The notes: generated from the letters alone by a model not told the origin. Counted from the first letter of the stretch, positions 11,226 to 26,600 are shown. The stretch is DNA of 26,647 bases from Flavobacteriaceae bacterium (GCA_008081325.1 VMCO01000177.1:1-26647); one strand, 5' to 3'. Numbers and translations are program-made.

Positions 11226-13617
11226 AGTTCAGAGAAAAAATAAAGTTTAAGCCAGGTGCTGAAATTCCTGATGAATAGGGTCTATATAATTTATTTGTTA
11301 TATTCTCAACAGTAAAATTGATGTTTAGCATTTTGGAAAAAGAATATTTTGATCTAATGTTAAATGTCATCCATGATGGTGAATATGGATTGCCATTTTC
11401 ATCTAATGCATACATATAAGGTTTTGCCCTTTCAGACTCTGCAAGATTACTAAATGATATTTTTGAATTATAATTTAAGTACGAGTCAATTGTAAAATCT
11501 CCATTATTATAAATAAAATGAAAATTGCCATAATTGGGTGGTATATGCCTAACTGGCATTGAAAATGGTAATTGATTTAATTCATATCCAGCAATTAAAT
11601 TATGTTGGGATTTGATACTAAAATTTTTGTTTAAAAACATGTTTATCCCCAATTCCATTCCGTAAATAAAAGACTTTGAACTGTTTTGAAGTGCTTGAAT
11701 TTGAGATAGTTCCCCGTCATAAATTATTTCTGATACCCCGTTACTCAATGTAAAATCATCTCTTATGAATGAGTTATATAAATATGTCACATATGATGAA
11801 AAATCTAATTCGATATTATTCTTTGTTCTAAAGTAACCTCCAAACTCTAGTCCAAAAGATCTTTCTGGTTTTAAGTCAGGGTTTGGAACAACCACGCTTC
11901 CAGGTTCAGAATCAAAAACCTTAGCAAGATCGTCTATGTTTGGAGATCTAAAAGCTGTATTGATATTAAACTTCCAATTATTGTAAATATTTCTAACCCA
12001 ACTTAGTCCAATTCCACCAACAAATGCTCCATTTTTTAATGTTGTATTTTCATACATAAAATCATAATACAGATTGTTTTGTGATAAGTCCGCTTTTAAT
12101 TCCGTTAAACTATATCTTACTCCACTTTGAAAAAACACATCTTCGATGACTTTAGTTTTGTAGTTAACATATAAGCCTAGGGAGCTTAAAGATGAATCAT
12201 CTGGATATCTGGTTGAAATTAAGGTTTCTGTTAAATCATTTATGTCAGTTCTTTTAGCAAATGAACCCACATTGTTTTCAATTAATTCAAACCCATATGT
12301 AATATTAGATTTTTCTGATATTTTTTTATAAAAATCTAAGTTTACCGAAAATATACTTAAATCTTCTTCTCTAGAATTTAAATAGCTATTATTAAATTTT
12401 CTACTATTTCTGCTCTCCGAAAATTTCTGAAAAGAAGAAACAAACTTTAATTCGTCATAAAATTTAGATTGTATTGGGCTAAAAGTTAATTGGCTATTGA
12501 TTAACAGCCATTCCTGTGGTCCATAATACCATTCAGAATAATAGAGTCCTTGATTTTCATCATTTCTGATTAATCTATCATACCTGGGAATATCTCCCGT
12601 TCTAGAAAAATGTATACCCAGATCAATATTTAAATTTTCTCTAGGCTGATAAAAAACTTTTTGCATAAAATTAGTTTGGTTATATGCTGTGTTTCTTTGA
12701 ATCCTTGAATTAGGATTTGTTACAATTATATCACCACCTAAGGAATTTTGACCCACATAATTAGGTCTTAAATAGTCTGATGGTCCGTGAACACCCATAA
12801 TTAAATCCCCAAAATCTGATTTTGAGAAACTTGATAAAAATGCTATCTTCTTTAATCCATAGTTTAGATCTACATGATACATTTTTTCACTTGAAGCTGA
12901 TGAGTACCTTGTATTTAGGTTGATTTTGATGTTTGGTTTTGACCCCGTAGCTAACCTAGCTTTTTTTGTATAGAAGTTCATTACTCCTCCGATAGCATCA
13001 CTTCCGTACAACACAGATGCCGATCCCATAATTACTTCTGTATTTTCGATATTCAAGGGAGAAATAGAAATTACATTATGTATGTTTCCTCCTCTAAAAA
13101 TTGCATTATTTAATCTAACACCATCAACCGACAAAACTAATCTGTTAGTTGAAAGACCTCTAATCATTGGGCTTCCTCCTCCTAATTGACTTTTTTGTAT
13201 AAACACATAACCACCCCTCTCTAGTAAATCAGCACTAGTCATTGGGTTAGTAAATTCAATAGTAGATCTATTAATTTGTGTAACTTTTTTTGGAACTTCC
13301 CTAAACTTCTGTGAAAACTTAGAAGCTGAAATTACCACTTCATCTAATAATTCATTGTCATAAATTAGAGTAAGACTTTCGTTTAGTTTAGATTTAATAA
13401 GTTTTTGCTCCTTAAACCCGTATTGATTTATAGTTAAAGTATCCTTGTTTGAAAATTTGTTCAAGCTTACAAAACCATTCTTATCTGTTGTTGCAAAATT
13501 ACTTACATCACTAAAAACTGAAGCTCCGATTACAGGTTTCTTGTTTTCATCAATTATTAGCAGATCTTGTGAAAAAGATGTAATTGTAAATAATAAAAAG
13601 AAATAAAATTTATTCAC
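11215..13617 (-). CDS. TonB-dependent receptor (heme/hemoglobin-receptor-like group; substrate unproven)
   Basis: GTG start, signal peptide, degenerate N-terminal extension domain, LDEVVISASK, QLGGGSPMIRG, VDGVRLNN, SVLYGSDAIGGV, FRSPN and ENITN..Y motifs. Confidence 0.93.
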   Translation of the reverse strand: MNKFYFFLLFTITSFSQDLLIIDENKKPVIGASVFSDVSNFATTDKNGFVSLNKFSNKDTLTINQYGFKEQKLIKSKLNESLTLIYDNELLDEVVISASKFSQKFREVPKKVTQINRSTIEFTNPMTSADLLERGGYVFIQKSQLGGGSPMIRGLSTNRLVLSVDGVRLNNAIFRGGNIHNVISISPLNIENTEVIMGSASVLYGSDAIGGVMNFYTKKARLATGSKPNIKINLNTRYSSASSEKMYHVDLNYGLKKIAFLSSFSKSDFGDLIMGVHGPSDYLRPNYVGQNSLGGDIIVTNPNSRIQRNTAYNQTNFMQKVFYQPRENLNIDLGIHFSRTGDIPRYDRLIRNDENQGLYYSEWYYGPQEWLLINSQLTFSPIQSKFYDELKFVSSFQKFSESRNSRKFNNSYLNSREEDLSIFSVNLDFYKKISEKSNITYGFELIENNVGSFAKRTDINDLTETLISTRYPDDSSLSSLGLYVNYKTKVIEDVFFQSGVRYSLTELKADLSQNNLYYDFMYENTTLKNGAFVGGIGLSWVRNIYNNWKFNINTAFRSPNIDDLAKVFDSEPGSVVVPNPDLKPERSFGLEFGGYFRTKNNIELDFSSYVTYLYNSFIRDDFTLSNGVSEIIYDGELSQIQALQNSSKSFIYGMELGINMFLNKNFSIKSQHNLIAGYELNQLPFSMPVRHIPPNYGNFHFIYNNGDFTIDSYLNYNSKISFSNLAESERAKPYMYALDENGNPYSPSWMTFNIRSKYSFSKMLNINFTVENITNKLYRPYSSGISAPGLNFIFSLNYAY

Positions 13618-14324: not shown

Positions 14325-16699
14325 TAGCGAATAATCATTAGTTTCAAAATTTTTGTTTCATAAGAATCTAGATCAGAAAGCATTATAATATAAACTCCTG
14401 AAGCAACATTTTGATTTCTTAAATTTTTTCCATTCCAAAATGCAGTTCCTCCGTCAATTTCTAAATTAAAATTTCTGTATCTGGGGTTTATATTAGATTG
14501 TGCTTCAGCCACTAAATTTCCTGCAATATCTGTAATCTTAAGGTTTACATTTTCAGTTAAACCATTAATTTTAATCTTATCTGATTGAGAATTGAATTGT
14601 GGTCTAACCGGATTAGGATAAACAAAAGCATCCGAAAAATTATCTGAACTTGAGGTGCTGCCCGTATCAAAACTTACTAATCCCTGATCGGTTGCGAAAT
14701 ACACTTTACCATTTGTAAAATTTATGGAAATATCATTTATATTGTTTGAAGGCAAAGGGGAATTATCTTTCGTAAAGTGATAAATTGTTTGTTGACCATT
14801 AGGCGAAAAATAAAACACTCCAGAACCAATAGTCCCAACCCATTTATTATTTGCTCCATCCACCTCAATATTAGTTATATACTGTTGTTCTAACAACTCC
14901 CTTGGGATACCATCTTCTAAAATAACTATCTTCTGAGTTGTAACAATAGGGGTTTCAAAAAAACTAGATGTATTATATAAAACCCTTAGACCCTGAACTG
15001 TTCCAATCCACAGATGATTATTATTATCAACTGCAATTGATTTTACATAAGATGATGGCATATCTGATTGGTCTTGACTAAAAACTTTTCTAAGTTGTAT
15101 GTTGCCTGATTCATTATTAAAACCAATTAAACCCGATCTTAAACCAGCTATCCATTTATTACCATAATCGTCTATTTCAATGTCGTTAAATCCAAGTTCA
15201 TCCTGAAAACCATCATTTATAATTTCAGTAAAATCATAACTATTCCAGCTATTATTATCTAGGTTATATGATTTTAAAGGGCTGTCTATTCTGCAATTTA
15301 AAACCCATAAATCTCCATTTTGATCAAATTCGATGTCAGAAATTCTTAAACTTTCATATTCAGGATCACTGGTAGATAAAGATTCTAGTTCGCTGTTATT
15401 ATTGTTATAAAATTCAACAAAATTGAAATTATCCATCTCCATTAAGCCTCCATGAAAAGAACTGATAAAAACATTATTATTATTAAATGGATTTATGGAA
15501 ATATTATTTAGGTTAACTGATTGGTTAGGAATTGAGTCTTTACTTACATTTAGCCATCTATCTAAATTTTCATCGTAGTTGCTAATTCCACTAAATTTTA
15601 AAGGATATGGATTAAAATATTCAGTGTAATTTCCAAATGAAACCCATGTTTGATTGTTTAGTGTTTCTACAGAAAATATATTATTTTCCAACGGACCATC
15701 AGGCTTCAAATAAGAATAATCGTTGGTATTATTATTAATTAGCAGCACTCCTTTTTCGGATGTTGCTATATATATTTTATTATTTTTTATAATTCCATCA
15801 TTAAAAGTTGTCAAATATTTTTGAGATTCAAAAACATCTAATAATTGTGATAGTTGATCATTATAGATTAGGCAGTTTTCACCAGAAATAATTACAATTT
15901 TAGAGTCTGATGTACTTACGTTTTTAATCTGATTATCCAAGGTCAGTAAATTAATTATTTCTTCATTTTTAAAACCCATTACATTGTAATCGTCATAAAA
16001 AAATATGTTATTATCGTTAAGAAATAATTCATTAACACTGCCATTATAAATTGTTTGCCAATTATTAAATTCTATTAAATTTGAATCTAAATTTGCTCTT
16101 AAAATGCCTAGCTCTGAACTCGATGCAAAAATGAAATTTTCATTGACAACAGTACTACTAATATCTAACATAGATGCAAAATCTCCTATATAATAAGTGT
16201 CTCCAAATTCAAATTCATTTAAATCAAAAACGGAAATACCATAACCTGTTGAAATCAATATTTCATCACCATTTTGATTAAAATGGTTGATTATTTTTCT
16301 GTCTGCAGGAATTGAAGGTTTATTTAAAATGTCATAGACATTAATTATCGTATTTGAGTTTAAATCAATTAGCTGTAAAAAGCCACTACTGTAACCTATA
16401 GCTATAATGTTATTATTTATAGAATGATAAAAAGCTGAAATTTCATCTCCGGACAATTCATTTAAAGTATCAAATTTCTCTATTTGAAATGAAGATGTAT
16501 CGTATGAGAAAATTGCATTATAAGATGCGAAATAAATTATCCCTTCACCATCACCAATTGAAGATATTGAATTAAAAGAAAAATATGTGTCCCAACCGTT
16601 ATATATCGTCGAGTTATTTTCTATAGAGAGCTTATTTTGTTGACTGTACGAAATGCATACGGAAAAAAACAGAAATAAAAACAGTCGAATTTTTAACAT
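14324..16699 (-). CDS. porZ: Type IX secretion A-LPS shuttle PorZ (beta-propellers plus T9SS C-terminal domain)
   Basis: Repeated propeller motifs (IEFDQNGDLW, IEIDDYGNKW, IAVDNNNHLWIGT, IEVDGANNKWVGT, PLPSNNINDI) and a CTD (FVYPNPV..., WNGKN...VASGVY), directly upstream of recO. Confidence 0.85.
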   Translation of the reverse strand: MLKIRLFLFLFFSVCISYSQQNKLSIENNSTIYNGWDTYFSFNSISSIGDGEGIIYFASYNAIFSYDTSSFQIEKFDTLNELSGDEISAFYHSINNNIIAIGYSSGFLQLIDLNSNTIINVYDILNKPSIPADRKIINHFNQNGDEILISTGYGISVFDLNEFEFGDTYYIGDFASMLDISSTVVNENFIFASSSELGILRANLDSNLIEFNNWQTIYNGSVNELFLNDNNIFFYDDYNVMGFKNEEIINLLTLDNQIKNVSTSDSKIVIISGENCLIYNDQLSQLLDVFESQKYLTTFNDGIIKNNKIYIATSEKGVLLINNNTNDYSYLKPDGPLENNIFSVETLNNQTWVSFGNYTEYFNPYPLKFSGISNYDENLDRWLNVSKDSIPNQSVNLNNISINPFNNNNVFISSFHGGLMEMDNFNFVEFYNNNNSELESLSTSDPEYESLRISDIEFDQNGDLWVLNCRIDSPLKSYNLDNNSWNSYDFTEIINDGFQDELGFNDIEIDDYGNKWIAGLRSGLIGFNNESGNIQLRKVFSQDQSDMPSSYVKSIAVDNNNHLWIGTVQGLRVLYNTSSFFETPIVTTQKIVILEDGIPRELLEQQYITNIEVDGANNKWVGTIGSGVFYFSPNGQQTIYHFTKDNSPLPSNNINDISINFTNGKVYFATDQGLVSFDTGSTSSSDNFSDAFVYPNPVRPQFNSQSDKIKINGLTENVNLKITDIAGNLVAEAQSNINPRYRNFNLEIDGGTAFWNGKNLRNQNVASGVYIIMLSDLDSYETKILKLMIIR

Positions 16700-22406: not shown

Positions 22407-23407
22407 AAGAAACTAAATTAAAATTTGGAGTTATTGGTAGTGGAAGCTGGGCAACCGCTCTGATCAAAATTCTTTCTGAAAACAATAATGACATAAACTG
22501 GTACATTAGAAACAGTGAGAATATTGAATTCATTAAAAGTAATTTTCATAATCCAAACTATTTAAGTTCTGTAGAGCTTAATCTCAACAAATTAAATATG
22601 TCTTCAGATATAAATAAAGTTGTAGAGAATTCAGATGTAATTATAATTGCGATTCCATCAGAATATGTAAATAATGAAATGAATAAAATTGAAGTTAATC
22701 TTTCCGACAAAATAATAATGTGTGCCCTTAAAGGTCTTGTTCAAGAAACAAATCTTTTATTTGGAGAACACATGCATAAATATTTTGATGTTTCTAAAGA
22801 TAACTTTCTGGTTATTGGGGGACCATGTCATGCTGAAGAAGTTGCATTGGAAAAATTATCATATTTAACCATAGGCTCCTCAAACTTAAATTTATGTAAA
22901 GTTGTTTCTGATAAATTTAAATGTAAGTATATCAATGTTAAGACATCTGATGACGTGTTCGGAATTGAATATGCTAGCATGTTAAAAAATATATTTGCTT
23001 TGGCTGTTGGTATTTCTAACGGATTGGGTTATGGAGATAACTATCAAAGTGTCTTGATGAGTAATTCAATTAAAGAAATGAAAAGATTTATTTCAAAAAG
23101 ACATAAGATTAAAAGAAATATAAATAATTCAGCCTACTTAGGGGATTTACTAGTAACTGGGTATTCATCTTTTTCAAGGAATAGAATGTTTGGAAATATG
23201 ATTGGAAAAGGATATACGGTGAAGGCAGCTCAACTTGAAATGAAAATGGTAGCTGAAGGATATATCGCTACAAAAAAAGCATTTTTACTTAATAATAATG
23301 CAAAGAAAAAAGCTAAAACACCAATAATTGACGCAGTCTATAAAATTTTATATGATAAAAGAAGTGCTAAAAAGGTGTTTAAAGATCTAAGTGATATAAT
23401 TTCTTAA
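22403..23407 (+). CDS. gpsA: NAD(P)H-dependent glycerol-3-phosphate dehydrogenase
   Basis: [38 protein letters not shown] and SRNR..G..IGKG motifs. Confidence 0.96.
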
Positions 23408-24420
23408 AACGAAGATTTAAACTGATCCAGAAATCTGACATCATTTTCACTTAACAATCTGATGTCATCAATTTGATGAAGTAATAAAGCAATTCTATCA
23501 ATGCCTAATCCAAAAGCAAAACCTGAGTATTCGCTAGAGTCAATTTTACAATTTTCTAAAACATTAGGGTCAACCATTCCACATCCCATAATCTCAAGCC
23601 ATCCAGTACCCTTAGTCATTTTATAATCAGTTTCATTGTTTAAACCCCAATAAACATCTACCTCAGCACTAGGCTCAGTAAAAGGAAAATAAGAGGGTCT
23701 TAGTCTTATTTTTGATTTGCCAAAGAGTTGAGTTGTGAAATATTCTAATGTTTGTTTTAAATCTGCAAAACTTACATCTTTATCAATACATAAGCCTTCA
23801 ATCTGATGAAAAAAACAGTGTGAACGAGCAGAAATTGCTTCATTTCTGTAAACTCTTCCTGGTGAAATAGTTCTGATAGGTGGCTTGTTATTTTCCATGT
23901 ATCTGACCTGAACTGAACTAGTATGGGTTCTAAGTAAATAGTCCGGATCTTTTTCAATGAAAAAAGTATCCTGCATATCTCTTGCAGGATGATGTTCAGG
24001 AAGATTTAAAGCACTGAAATTGTGCCAATCATCTTCTATTTCTGGCCCTTCACTTATTGTAAATCCAATATTCGAAAAAATGTCAATTATTCTATTTTTG
24101 ACGACTGAAATAGGGTGGCGAGAACCAATACCAATAGGGTCCCCAGGCCTAGAAGTATCATTAATTTCAATCTTCTCAGATGATTTAGAGCTATTTGATT
24201 TTAAAGCCTCAACTTTTTCTTGAGCTAAGTTTTTTAATTCATTTAACAGACGTCCAACATTTTTCTTTTCATTACTATCTAATGATTTAAATTCAACAAA
24301 ATATGAATTCAATAAACCTTTTTTCCCAAGATACTTTACCCTAAACTCTTCTATTTCAGTAATTGAGTCAGAAGTAAAATTTTCAATTGCTTCTAAATCT
24401 TTTTTTATTTTATCCTCCAT
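23404..24420 (-). CDS. pheS: Phenylalanine--tRNA ligase alpha subunit
   Basis: [50 protein letters not shown] and FAFGLG motifs. Confidence 0.99.
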
Positions 24421-24448: not shown

Positions 24449-24799
24449 TTAATTAATATAGTCTGATTTAATAAAATAGTTAATGATTGCTTTTTTCATA
24501 AGAATTGTTTGTTCACCTGGCTTTAAGTTTGGTAGCTTTTTGATTAACTTATAATGTGGCCAACCATCTTCATCTTTAAAATCAAATTCATAATATCCAT
24601 AATCAGTTAACAACTTACATACAGCTATATGTATAACCTCCATTTTTTTTTGCTTATTCAGTTTTTTCTGAAATTGACCTAGCTCCTGTAATCCGATTAA
24701 AAAAATTATCGAGTCTAAATCAATGATATCATCTTCAGAAAAATCAGCCGAAAGTTTATTTTTCAAATTATCCCACTTTGTTTTTAGCTCAGATTTCAA
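24449..24799 (-). CDS. Hypothetical protein (looks like a conserved Bacteroidota family)
   Basis: TTG start, 116 aa, filling the gap exactly. Motifs IFLIGLQELG, HIAVCKLL..YGYYEF and DGWPHY look conserved (from recollection, not searched). Confidence 0.7.
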   Translation of the reverse strand: MKSELKTKWDNLKNKLSADFSEDDIIDLDSIIFLIGLQELGQFQKKLNKQKKMEVIHIAVCKLLTDYGYYEFDFKDEDGWPHYKLIKKLPNLKPGEQTILMKKAIINYFIKSDYIN

Positions 24800-24880: not shown

Positions 24881-25378
24881 ATGAGCTATCTCGATCTTTT
24901 TTTTGGTTTGACAATAGCCTGGGGAGCTTATAGTGGTTTTTCAAAAGGACTAATTAAAGAATTAGCATCTATATTAGGGGTAATTATTGGGGTATTCTTA
25001 GCCAAGAATTACTACCCATATCTTGATATAAAACTAAAACCAATTTTTGAATCTGAAGCAGGTTTTATTTCTATTCTATCGGCAATATTGATATTCTTAT
25101 TAACCATAATGGTATTCAAAATTATTGCTAAGTTTTTGACAAAATTCTTAAAAATAATTGCTCTTGGATTACTAAACAGAATTATCGGATCTGTTTTTGG
25201 TATTTTTAAAACGGTTCTGCTTTTGTGCATTTTAGTTTTTATTTTTTCGAATATAAATAATGTGACAGGAATTATAAAAGCTGAAAAACTTAGTCAATCT
25301 TTTTTTTACTCAAAAATTGAAAAAATTAATAGTTTTATAATTGAAAGTAACTACAATGAAAACGGTAATGAGGAATGA
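24881..25378 (+). CDS. cvpA: CvpA (colicin V production) family membrane protein
   Basis: D......AW.AY.GFSKGLIKE, four hydrophobic segments, and LNRIIGSVFG.FK. Confidence 0.9.
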   Translation: MSYLDLFFGLTIAWGAYSGFSKGLIKELASILGVIIGVFLAKNYYPYLDIKLKPIFESEAGFISILSAILIFLLTIMVFKIIAKFLTKFLKIIALGLLNRIIGSVFGIFKTVLLLCILVFIFSNINNVTGIIKAEKLSQSFFYSKIEKINSFIIESNYNENGNEE

Positions 25379-25812
25379 TGAAGATCGATAACTAATTTAT
25401 CGTTCATGAGCTTATAGCCAAATGTAAATTCAACTTTAACTTCGTTATTTGATAAGTCTTTAAAAAAATAATTACCCATTGCAATTGCTCTATCATTTTC
25501 AATTATAAAACCTGAGTTTTCAAATTTAACTTCAACCCAGGGCTTCATAGCAAAACCATCATCTTCAGAACAATAGGAGTGATCCCCACCTAAAAAATAT
25601 GACAAAGCCATTTCAAATGTTGGCCTGAATTGTTGAGCGGATGCTTTTGTAGGTTTAAATAACACATTATTATTTTTAAAATCATACATTTCATTTAAGA
25701 ATGAAGTGGTATATTGAATACATTCTGATTTGTTTTCCTTTAGGCTTCCTATTCTTACAATTCCGCTACCCCATTTATTTTGAGCTTCTTTAATTAAATC
25801 TTCTGTTATCAT
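25351..25812 (-). CDS. COG4337-like NTF2/SnoaL-fold protein, candidate iota-class (metal-independent) carbonic anhydrase
   Basis: Motif series LFKPTKA, FRPTFEMALSYFLGG, EDDGFAMKPW, VKFEN, AIAMGNYFF, KVEFTFGY and the terminal LHHSSLPF. Single domain, no signal peptide. Confidence 0.8.
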   Translation of the reverse strand: MITEDLIKEAQNKWGSGIVRIGSLKENKSECIQYTTSFLNEMYDFKNNNVLFKPTKASAQQFRPTFEMALSYFLGGDHSYCSEDDGFAMKPWVEVKFENSGFIIENDRAIAMGNYFFKDLSNNEVKVEFTFGYKLMNDKLVIDLHHSSLPFSL

Positions 25813-26600
25813 ATTATTTTAATTTCATTATTATTAATCCAACCTTCTTGACCATTTACTAATTTGATTTTCACCCATTTATCGTTGAAACTATCAATAA
25901 TCTTTACTTTAGTACCCATGTGCAAAATAAGTAAATTCTCACTTCTTTCATTTGGTTCGGACTTAATTTCAATTTTTGAAGAAAAAATAATCGCATATTT
26001 TTCAAGATGATTTTTTTCGTAAGCATGTAAACTAATCTTTGTTGTAATTCCAATCAAGAAAAGTAAAACTAATAATAGTGTAAATGAAGTTCTTTTAACA
26101 ATTGGTTCTTTTGAAAAGAAATAAAAAATAAATAATAAAAGAAAGAGAAAAGATATAATTAAAGATATCAAGCCCCAGTTAGAATAACTTAAGTTGTTTG
26201 ATATTTTGTTTAATTGATTATCAAAAAATGGCTCTGGTATTTTAGTTATATCATCAATGATTGCATTGTTAACCATTTTTAAATTATTGATTATATCTTT
26301 ATCTGTAGGATTAAGCTTTAATGATTTTTCATAAAACAAGATACTGTTTGGAATATCATTTAATTTATAAAATGAATTCCCAAGATTATAATATAACTCT
26401 GATGAATGAACTCCTGAATCCAAAATTTCAAAATAAACCTCAATTGATTTTTCGTATTTTGAATCATTATAAAGATTGTTTGCCTTTGTAAATTTATCGT
26501 CAAAAACAGAGAAATTTAAATTCTCTTCACTAAGAAGATTAGTCGAAAACATCGCCAAGATAATTAAGATTATAGTGTGAAAAAGTGGGGTCTTCAGCAT
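25809..26600 (-). CDS. batE: BatE-type TPR protein with two TM helices and a C-terminal SH3b domain
   Basis: F.KAN.LY..KYE..I..Y, ELYYNLGNSFYK, YEKSLKLNP.D.DI.NNL, TM segments, and an SH3b domain (SEPN..S..L..LH.GTKV, WVKIKL.NG.EGW). The frame stays open upstream to the window edge. Confidence 0.88.
   Translation of the reverse strand: MLKTPLFHTIILIILAMFSTNLLSEENLNFSVFDDKFTKANNLYNDSKYEKSIEVYFEILDSGVHSSELYYNLGNSFYKLNDIPNSILFYEKSLKLNPTDKDIINNLKMVNNAIIDDITKIPEPFFDNQLNKISNNLSYSNWGLISLIISFLFLLLFIFYFFSKEPIVKRTSFTLLLVLLFLIGITTKISLHAYEKNHLEKYAIIFSSKIEIKSEPNERSENLLILHMGTKVKIIDSFNDKWVKIKLVNGQEGWINNNEIKII

Follow-up and report, generated by a model that had tools for sequence, protein, structure and literature searches.

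The closest described relatives of the protein considered here are two iota-class carbonic anhydrases (CAs) of the COG4337 type, Bn86287 of Bigelowiella natans (PDB 7C5X/7C5Y) and all2909 of Anabaena sp. PCC 7120 (PDB 7C5V/7C5W; NCBIfam NF047901). The protein is encoded directly behind batE on a contig of a Flavobacteriaceae bacterium (GCA_008081325.1 VMCO01000177.1:1-26647). The window analysed was this whole contig (C1; 26,647 nucleotides), which belongs to an assembly of 1.15 Mb in 202 contigs (66.7% complete, 30.5% GC). Our overall reading, which we regard as probable, is that the gene (iota-CA below) encodes the only CA of its genus, a cytoplasmic enzyme in the former place of a beta-CA that would supply bicarbonate without zinc, its activity and metal independence being assigned by homology. 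While the enzyme family is known, the evolutionary and regulatory setting of the gene is new.

Known enzymes and the COG4337-type protein of the window

Bn86287 was the best match, at 42-43% identity per domain and a template modelling score (TM) of 0.93. The active-site Thr, Tyr, His and Ser and the HHSS motif are common to both, and the algal domains, like the present protein, carry no bacterial signal peptide; the algal enzyme differs in its three tandem domains and plastid-targeting signal (PMC8132391), whereas a single cytoplasmic domain is found here, in a heterotroph. The Anabaena enzyme all2909 is likewise bacterial and single-domain (TM 0.94, root-mean-square deviation (rmsd) 1.4-1.5 Å), but its identity is 33-34% and the NF047901 model has ~50 extra N-terminal positions. 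The COG4875 iota-CAs (LCIP63 of Thalassiosira pseudonana and BteCA-iota of Burkholderia territorii) share the NTF2/CaMKII-AD-like fold and the C-terminal HHSS, but were reported to be Mn- or Zn-dependent, and similarity to the COG4875 structure 3H51 was negligible (E 1.1 by sequence, TM 0.60-0.66). Because 3H51 matched at only E 1.1, the protein was assigned to the COG4337 type and not to the type with reported metal dependence.

Can, the housekeeping beta-CA of E. coli, is needed for growth at air-level CO2. It is alike in the role proposed here, cytoplasmic bicarbonate supply for carboxylations, but it has an unrelated fold and requires zinc, and it is the kind of enzyme apparently displaced by iota-CA in this genus. 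The Zur-regulated gamma-CA (Cam) paralogues located by COG0523 in proteobacteria follow the same logic, an alternative CA accompanied by COG0523, FolE and further zinc-sparing genes and governed by a Fur-family regulator (Haas et al. 2009, PMC2770081). They differ in being gamma-class, probably iron enzymes that act as back-ups beside the zinc enzyme, whereas the present gene encodes an iota-class protein (the metal-free type), belongs to Bacteroidota, appears to be the sole CA gene in its genus and lies outside any such cluster.

The gene and its main features are given below (coordinates in the window, strand, description and basis).

25351..25812 (-), iota-class (COG4337-type) CA gene, 153 aa, single NTF2-like domain, without signal peptide; open reading frame (ORF), PDB and NCBIfam matches, AlphaFold (AF2) model, Foldseek
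25809..25812 (-), ATGA overlap of the batE stop (TGA) and the iota-CA start (ATG), translational coupling; sequence, the same junction at 23/23 other batE-context loci, RNA-library contigs
25648..25650 (-), codon ACA, Thr55 (KPT motif), counterpart of all2909 Thr106, which is essential for activity; 7C5V alignment, mutagenesis in PMC8132391, invariance in 25 sequences
25597..25599 (-), codon TAT, Tyr72 (SYF motif), counterpart of all2909 Tyr124, the proposed proton shuttle; alignment, mutagenesis in PMC8132391, invariance
25369..25380 (-), HHSS motif, His145-His146-Ser147-Ser148, with His145 and Ser147 corresponding to all2909 His197 and Ser199; sequence, alignment, mutagenesis in PMC8132391, invariance

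A phmmer search of PDB chains returned the two characterised COG4337 enzymes and essentially no other match: 7C5X (whole-sequence E 6e-87, the three domains ~1e-27 each) and 7C5V (E 3e-20, residues 2-152). The NCBIfam model NF047901, 'metal-independent carbonic anhydrase', was matched with 85.4 bits (E 3.2e-24, model positions 51-204 of 205). This model is an equivalog with a curated cut-off of 350 bits, so that the protein counts as related to the narrow cyanobacterial group but falls outside it. In the local Pfam copy the protein had no match; this blank is uninformative, as its relatives are tagged PF27546, a family newer than that copy.

The AF2 model, built on 25 flavobacterial homologues, had a predicted local distance difference test score (pLDDT) of 92.4 and a predicted TM (pTM) of 0.89. 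Foldseek aligned it with 7C5X and 7C5V at TM 0.93-0.94 and rmsd 1.4-2.0 Å, and the next-best NTF2 folds reached TM of 0.66 or less. Residues T55, Y72, H145 and S147 align with T106, Y124, H197 and S199 of all2909 (counted along the printed alignment) and are invariant in the 25-sequence flavobacterial alignment; alanine mutants of the four all2909 residues are inactive (Hirakawa et al., PMC8132391). In sequence, fold and catalytic residues the protein has all that marks a COG4337-type iota-CA.

Signal peptides are present in most bacterial COG4337 proteins (PMC8132391), a usual trait of these members and not a defining one, which iota-CA lacks. Its frame is open for 155 codons, only 2 codons upstream of the ATG, so that neither an N-terminal extension nor a signal peptide is possible; MITEDLIKEAQNKW, at the N-terminus, makes up the first helix of the AF2 model. 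The Bacteroidota homologues examined start at the same Met and are also without a signal peptide. Taken together, sequence and model clearly predict that the gene product is a COG4337-type iota-class CA, cytoplasmic and single-domain.

A preliminary description, made from the sequence alone, had proposed a metal-free iota-class CA coupled to batE. Its 153-aa ORF at 25351-25812, all of its quoted motifs (KPT at residue 53, SYF 71, GFA 86, MGNYFF 112, EFTFGY 128, HHSS 145) and the overlap of the ATG with the batE TGA at 25809-25812 were each found in the sequence. The strong matches to both characterised metal-free enzymes with the four catalytic residues kept, the NTF2 fold in the AlphaFold and Foldseek check it had proposed, and the lack of room for a signal peptide all bear out its call of a cytoplasmic iota-CA.

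The slot between batE and cvpA

In the window, the gene lies between batE and a convergent cvpA, in the following setting.

25809..26600 (-), batE, encoding a TPR, transmembrane and SH3_3 protein, last canonical gene of the Bat (aerotolerance; MoxR/DUF58/vWA) operon; Pfam TPR_1 and SH3_3, operon of congener L074
24881..25378 (+), cvpA (Colicin V production protein family), convergent with iota-CA, downstream edge of the CA slot; Pfam PF02674, E 1e-28
24449-24799 (-), conserved 116-aa ORF of unknown function, on the far flank of the family-wide block batE-(CA/SulP)-cvpA-hyp116-pheS
23404-24420 (-), pheS, also on the far flank of this block

The 3' ends of cvpA and iota-CA share 28 nt (25351-25378), and the position of cvpA is the same in congeners and in other genera. 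The remaining bat operon genes lie beyond the contig end in the window. In congener L074, genes for DUF58, a 543-aa unknown protein, BatA (vWA), a second vWA protein (BatB), a TPR protein, BatD, BatE and iota-CA abut on one strand, and the batE product of the window has TPR and SH3_3 domains together with hydrophobic segments (Pfam). The operon order of L074 and the TPR/SH3_3 domains make the name batE sound for the upstream gene.

The named relatives of the window's genome are uncultured marine single-cell and metagenome assemblies (AG-313-I08, AG-894-C03, AG-333-B03, MED-G126, NAT90). The gene was found in 18 of 21 species genomes of the genus, with coordinates that abut batE in all 18; the three genomes without iota-CA are also without the batE locus. 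The order batE, iota-CA, convergent cvpA, 116-aa ORF and pheS was seen in 16/16 congener loci examined and was kept down to 61% CA identity and ~50% BatE identity. The gene is contiguous with the bat genes and on their strand, and the ATGA junction recurred in 23/23 other batE-context loci. This position behind batE is confined to the genus-level clade, and iota-CA is thus not a general member of Bat operons.

Beta-CA (PF00484) was found in 0/21 genomes of the genus, as against 283/301 genomes in the family. The genus genomes are 56-86% complete, and a chance miss of a universal beta-CA in all 21 is very unlikely. Among the five most complete congeners, no alpha-CA (PF00194) or SulP (PF00916) was detected, and searches for gamma-CA (NF050158) gave weak cross-hits only. 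Two short hexapeptide-repeat ORFs in congeners were considered as gamma-CAs and rejected as NeuD/LpxA-like acyltransferases. From this distribution, iota-CA appears to be the sole CA of the genus; in none of the 21 genomes was it found together with its zinc-dependent counterpart beta-CA, whereas large-genome relatives have both.

In other genera of the family the same place is held by other genes. In maps of ~6 kb downstream of batE, 11-12 of 16 other genera of Flavobacteriaceae had a beta-CA, a SulP or both in the stretch from batE to cvpA/pheS, oriented like batE. One of these (G010) has batE, beta-CA, cvpA, the 116-aa ORF and pheS, which is the arrangement of the window with another enzyme class, and its gap between batE and beta-CA is ~40 bp; in another of the 16 genera (G007), batE is followed by cvpA and the slot is empty. 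Over a wider sample of 76 genera, 63 had a beta-CA in the orientation of batE at 0.15-6.4 kb downstream; the 76 are the genera with both positions printed in the family-wide searches, collated by hand from the best-scoring part of each list and not selected for adjacency. Direct maps showed a second beta-CA downstream of batE in two further genera. Outside the family, 18 genomes of the same order had no beta-CA, SulP or iota-CA within ~6 kb of batE.

The gene order batE-(CA/SulP) is a trait of the family Flavobacteriaceae. The family-wide slot pattern, absent from the other families sampled, argues that iota-CA is an in-situ non-orthologous displacement of beta-CA, an interpretation supported by independent lines of evidence. 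The preliminary description had it that some flavobacteria carry a beta-CA or SulP near batE; most of the Flavobacteriaceae genera sampled have such genes downstream of batE and co-directional with it, a broader pattern than 'some'. The replacement in situ that was proposed there agrees with iota-CA in the slot and no beta-CA detected in 21 genus genomes, and a CA-type gene beside batE is not unique to this genome, given the beta-CA there in 63/76 genera. In the literature searched, no description of the family-wide batE-SulP-betaCA gene order was found.

Distances from batE to beta-CA fell into classes of ~0.15 kb, 0.6-0.8 kb, 2.2-2.5 kb and a recurrent 6.3 kb (G212, G209, G073, G070, G204, G169), which suggests a few fixed slot layouts in which one or two SulP-like genes separate beta-CA from batE. 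The 116-aa ORF (24449-24799, -) starts with TTG and is conserved between cvpA and pheS in several Flavobacteriaceae genera (48-59% identity); neither Pfam nor NCBIfam matched it, and it probably encodes a real small protein. Two contigs binned outside Bacteroidota carry flavobacterial-type iota-CAs, L077 (NHDX01000044.1, Chloroflexi metagenome-assembled genome (MAG) TMED70; 70% identity, nested in the batE-context clade) and L102 (PBNL01000007.1, Methanobacteriota MAG SP189; 57% identity), and both are probably mis-binned.

The zinc-type cluster in larger-genome relatives

In the family as sampled (301 genomes, 300 genera), iota-CA was present in 21 genomes and beta-CA was absent from 18, of which 10 carry iota-CA. 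Beta-CA was lacking in 10/21 carriers of iota-CA compared with 8/280 non-carriers, a contrast uncorrected for kinship. The ten genomes with iota-CA only are small (1.15-1.8 Mb), together with one complete 2.7-Mb genome, where the gene immediately follows SulP; the eleven with both enzymes are mostly 3-5.5 Mb.

In large genomes, the gene recurs in a cluster made up of a divergent Fur-family regulator, a MerC-like membrane protein, FolE (GTP cyclohydrolase I), a COG0523 CobW-type GTPase, iota-CA, a 165-aa unknown protein and PhoX; the cluster-bearing relatives include cultured Tenacibaculum, Aquimarina, Winogradskyella and Psychroserpens. Among the best 80 Bacteroidota loci in species-representative genomes, the neighbours of iota-CA were the 165-aa partner (36), COG0523 (22), MerC (21), the Fur-family regulator (20), FolE (15), PhoX (14), SulP (11) and batE (7). 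The SulP pairing at 11/80 loci lends support from context to a CA function.

COG0523, FolE and zinc-independent substitutes of enzymes are hallmarks of Zur regulons (Haas et al. 2009, PMC2770081). By its composition, the cluster in larger-genome relatives looks related to zinc starvation, and a zinc-sparing rationale, which had been suggested for the gene from the window alone, is supported by this gene context of Fur-family regulator, COG0523, FolE, MerC and PhoX in relatives. The idea of zinc economy is an extension of an earlier published idea and not a new concept; in the literature searched, no publication was found that places iota-CA in a zinc-type (Fur-family/COG0523) cluster.

The palindrome TTGCAACTnAGTTGCAA or close variants of it occurred in 14/14 regulator-MerC spacers examined, most of which hold two copies. 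Its inverted halves flank a single central base, as is known from Fur-family operators, and on these sequence grounds TTGCAACTnAGTTGCAA is a candidate operator of the cluster's Fur-family (probably Zur) regulator in Flavobacteriaceae. Examples of spacers that bear it are as follows.

L082:6840-6970, divergent promoter region
L093:6838-6969, divergent promoter region
L152:6838-6968, divergent promoter region

The window differs from these relatives, since iota-CA has no such neighbours there and no exact palindrome, whereas many relatives have the full setting. An operator of this type elsewhere in the window's genome was considered and rejected: the few exact core matches were on other contigs and about as many as expected by chance. 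With tblastn, no cluster-type Fur-family regulator, COG0523, MerC, 165-aa partner, SulP or beta-CA was found in the window's genome, a negative of little weight at 67% completeness; a FolE and a PhoX-like gene were found. There is one Fur-family gene per genome in the genus.

Several other observations were made on the cluster and on iota-CA in relatives. The ~165-aa ORF (N-terminus M..LFLLCPTDCLE..) lies directly downstream of iota-CA at 36/80 Bacteroidota loci, usually within the Fur-family/COG0523 cluster (for example L003:983-1477 (-), L015:953-1486 (-) and 34 loci among L074-L153), and it had no Pfam, NCBIfam or PDB sequence match. The GTP cyclohydrolase of the cluster is of the FolE-IA family (PF01227) and adjoins COG0523 (L004:1953-2618 (-), L016:1956-2693 (-), L007:3200-3451 (-)). 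FolE-IA beside COG0523 resembles the ZagA-FolE chaperone-client pairing of B. subtilis, unlike the usual FolE2 swap. In one large genome (G234, contig C38), iota-CA and beta-CA (12736-13191 and 15028-15480) are 1.8 kb apart, near COG0523, FolE and PhoX. In a small genome (G088, contig C33: 455-994; L021/L023), the iota-CA match falls into two pieces in one 198-codon frame, with 37% identity over 188 aligned positions, perhaps a variant form with an insertion inside it.

Proposed role and competing explanations

In the proposed mechanism, CO2 would be hydrated in the NTF2-like cavity, where, by homology, Thr55, Tyr72, His145 and Ser147 would activate water without a metal ion. The ancestral Flavobacteriaceae slot, from the Bat operon to the convergent cvpA, would have been occupied by a zinc-dependent beta-CA, in many cases accompanied by a SulP anion transporter. 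The genus would have lost beta-CA and SulP, and iota-CA would have taken the slot, joined to the operon by the ATGA overlap. In large genomes the iota-CA may serve as a regulated back-up for beta-CA, and in the genus it would have turned into the sole CA. The lack of an operator-like site on the contig and of cluster genes nearby suggests that iota-CA left the regulated cluster in the genus and was coupled to a housekeeping operon instead, and its ATGA fusion to that operon points to constitutive production, probably from the bat transcript. Its likely role is a housekeeping one like that of E. coli Can: bicarbonate for acetyl-CoA carboxylase, carbamoyl-phosphate synthetase and similar enzymes at air-level CO2, at no zinc cost.

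The batE/iota-CA junction was crossed by RNA-library contigs of 3 studies, with at least 44 nt on each side. The junction-spanning metatranscriptome contigs are given below.

X1, 25017-25871
X3, 25187-25919
X4, 24946-25856

These contigs are compatible with co-transcription of batE and iota-CA. Of the coupling to batE and expression from the bat operon claimed in the preliminary description, the first part stood, with the ATGA conserved and the junction crossed in three libraries, whereas with a shared bat transcript the data are compatible. The region upstream of cvpA was uncovered in three RNA runs, which is not readable as transcript ends. The runs are labelled 'freshwater', 'aquatic' and 'marine', and no conclusion on habitat was drawn.

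A link to anaplerotic CO2 fixation, argued from the window alone, proved weak. PEP (phosphoenolpyruvate) carboxylase was present in 1/5 congeners and was not found in the window's genome, and each of the 5 congeners had one biotin carboxylase, with no separate pyruvate carboxylase evident. Given the few PEP carboxylases and the single biotin carboxylase, the role was read as general bicarbonate supply and not as anaplerosis.

A number of points weigh against the reading of a sole, zinc-free CA in a former beta-CA slot. The protein is assigned CO2 hydration and metal independence by homology, at 33-43% identity; iota-CAs of the COG4875 type are reported to be Mn- or Zn-dependent; and the 85.4 bits to NF047901 fall far short of its cut-off. 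The genus genomes are incomplete, so each absence from them is statistical and not proven; related genomes are not independent, so 10/21 versus 8/280 overstates the association between iota-CA and the lack of beta-CA. Zinc economy in the genus is read from relatives and not seen directly, COG0523 is still present in some congeners, and no palindrome of the TTGCAACTnAGTTGCAA type lies on the window's contig. The RNA-library contigs give no strand and may include carried-over DNA.

The placement could also be a historical accident, in which one move or acquisition in the genus ancestor reached a tolerated site at the operon 3' end, beta-CA and SulP were lost separately by streamlining, and zinc had no role. 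In a quick maximum-likelihood tree of 103 Bacteroidota sequences, with weak deep branches, the batE-context genes grouped with those of two other small beta-CA-less genomes (Shimodaira-Hasegawa-like approximate likelihood ratio test (SH-aLRT) 81) and required 3 label changes versus 16.8 for shuffled labels. This clustering is compatible with a single relocation of iota-CA to the batE slot, as an accident would have it; the search for a donor lineage that had been proposed earlier named none, the deep branches being weak. An accident would also suit the other small beta-CA-less genomes, in which iota-CA occupies unrelated sites, and overlapping genes are common in reduced genomes. However, landing in the slot of an analogous enzyme would be a marked coincidence, and the recurrent COG0523/Fur-family/PhoX clusters argue that metal economy is part of the biology of the gene. 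The division between large genomes, with iota-CA in the zinc-type cluster plus beta-CA, and small ones with iota-CA alone fits a back-up turned replacement, and we think an accident unlikely.

Another explanation is that the CA is a working part of the Bat (MoxR/vWA/TPR) system, for local control of CO2/bicarbonate or pH, with SulP optional and a metal-free CA recruited to the slot after loss of the zinc enzyme. The co-directional beta-CA downstream of batE in most genera of the 76-genus sample, the short gap of ~40 bp in some genera such as G010, and the arrival of a non-homologous CA in the same slot with an ATGA overlap conserved at 24/24 batE-context loci all speak for such a tie. Yet the synteny ends at the family boundary (0/18 genomes of other families), the slot is empty or the CA elsewhere in G007, G009 and others, and most genomes with iota-CA carry it away from bat. 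The block also holds a small unknown ORF and cvpA and pheS, housekeeping genes without relation to the CA, and may be merely a stable chromosome stretch, and no publication linking Bat proteins with CA was found in the literature searched. We consider a functional tie unlikely; of the link between Bat and CO2/pH handling raised in the preliminary description, the CA slot kept across the family stood, and its end at the family boundary leaves the link itself as a hint. If true, the Flavobacteriaceae Bat system would be linked to inorganic-carbon or pH handling, and the CA would be a true terminal component of the operon, of such importance that a non-homologous enzyme was brought in and coupled to batE once the zinc enzyme had gone.

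Highly improbable, in our judgement, is an iota-CA fold with another main activity (hydratase, isomerase, binding) or with a metal need like that of the COG4875 enzymes: NTF2-like folds host many chemistries (Foldseek hits), the metal requirements reported within the iota class disagree and the match is below the equivalog cut-off, but there is no variation in the four catalytic residues or the cavity motifs, the protein is 42-43% identical to a characterised enzyme domain, SulP accompanies the gene in relatives, the gene takes the part of beta-CA in position and occurrence, and the COG4875 structure is barely matched.

We return to the reading in which iota-CA replaced beta-CA in its slot and is the only CA of the genus. 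The metal-free CAs characterised so far come from two phototrophs only, and what purpose they serve in the cell is still debated. Here a heterotroph genus, known from several surface-ocean single-cell and metagenome assemblies with small genomes, seems to rely on a CA of the metal-free type alone. The cluster in large genomes and the slot replacement in the genus turn the notion of a 'zinc-sparing CA' into specific experiments, and in the genus nature offers a case in which to ask whether life at very low zinc favours CO2 hydration without a metal.

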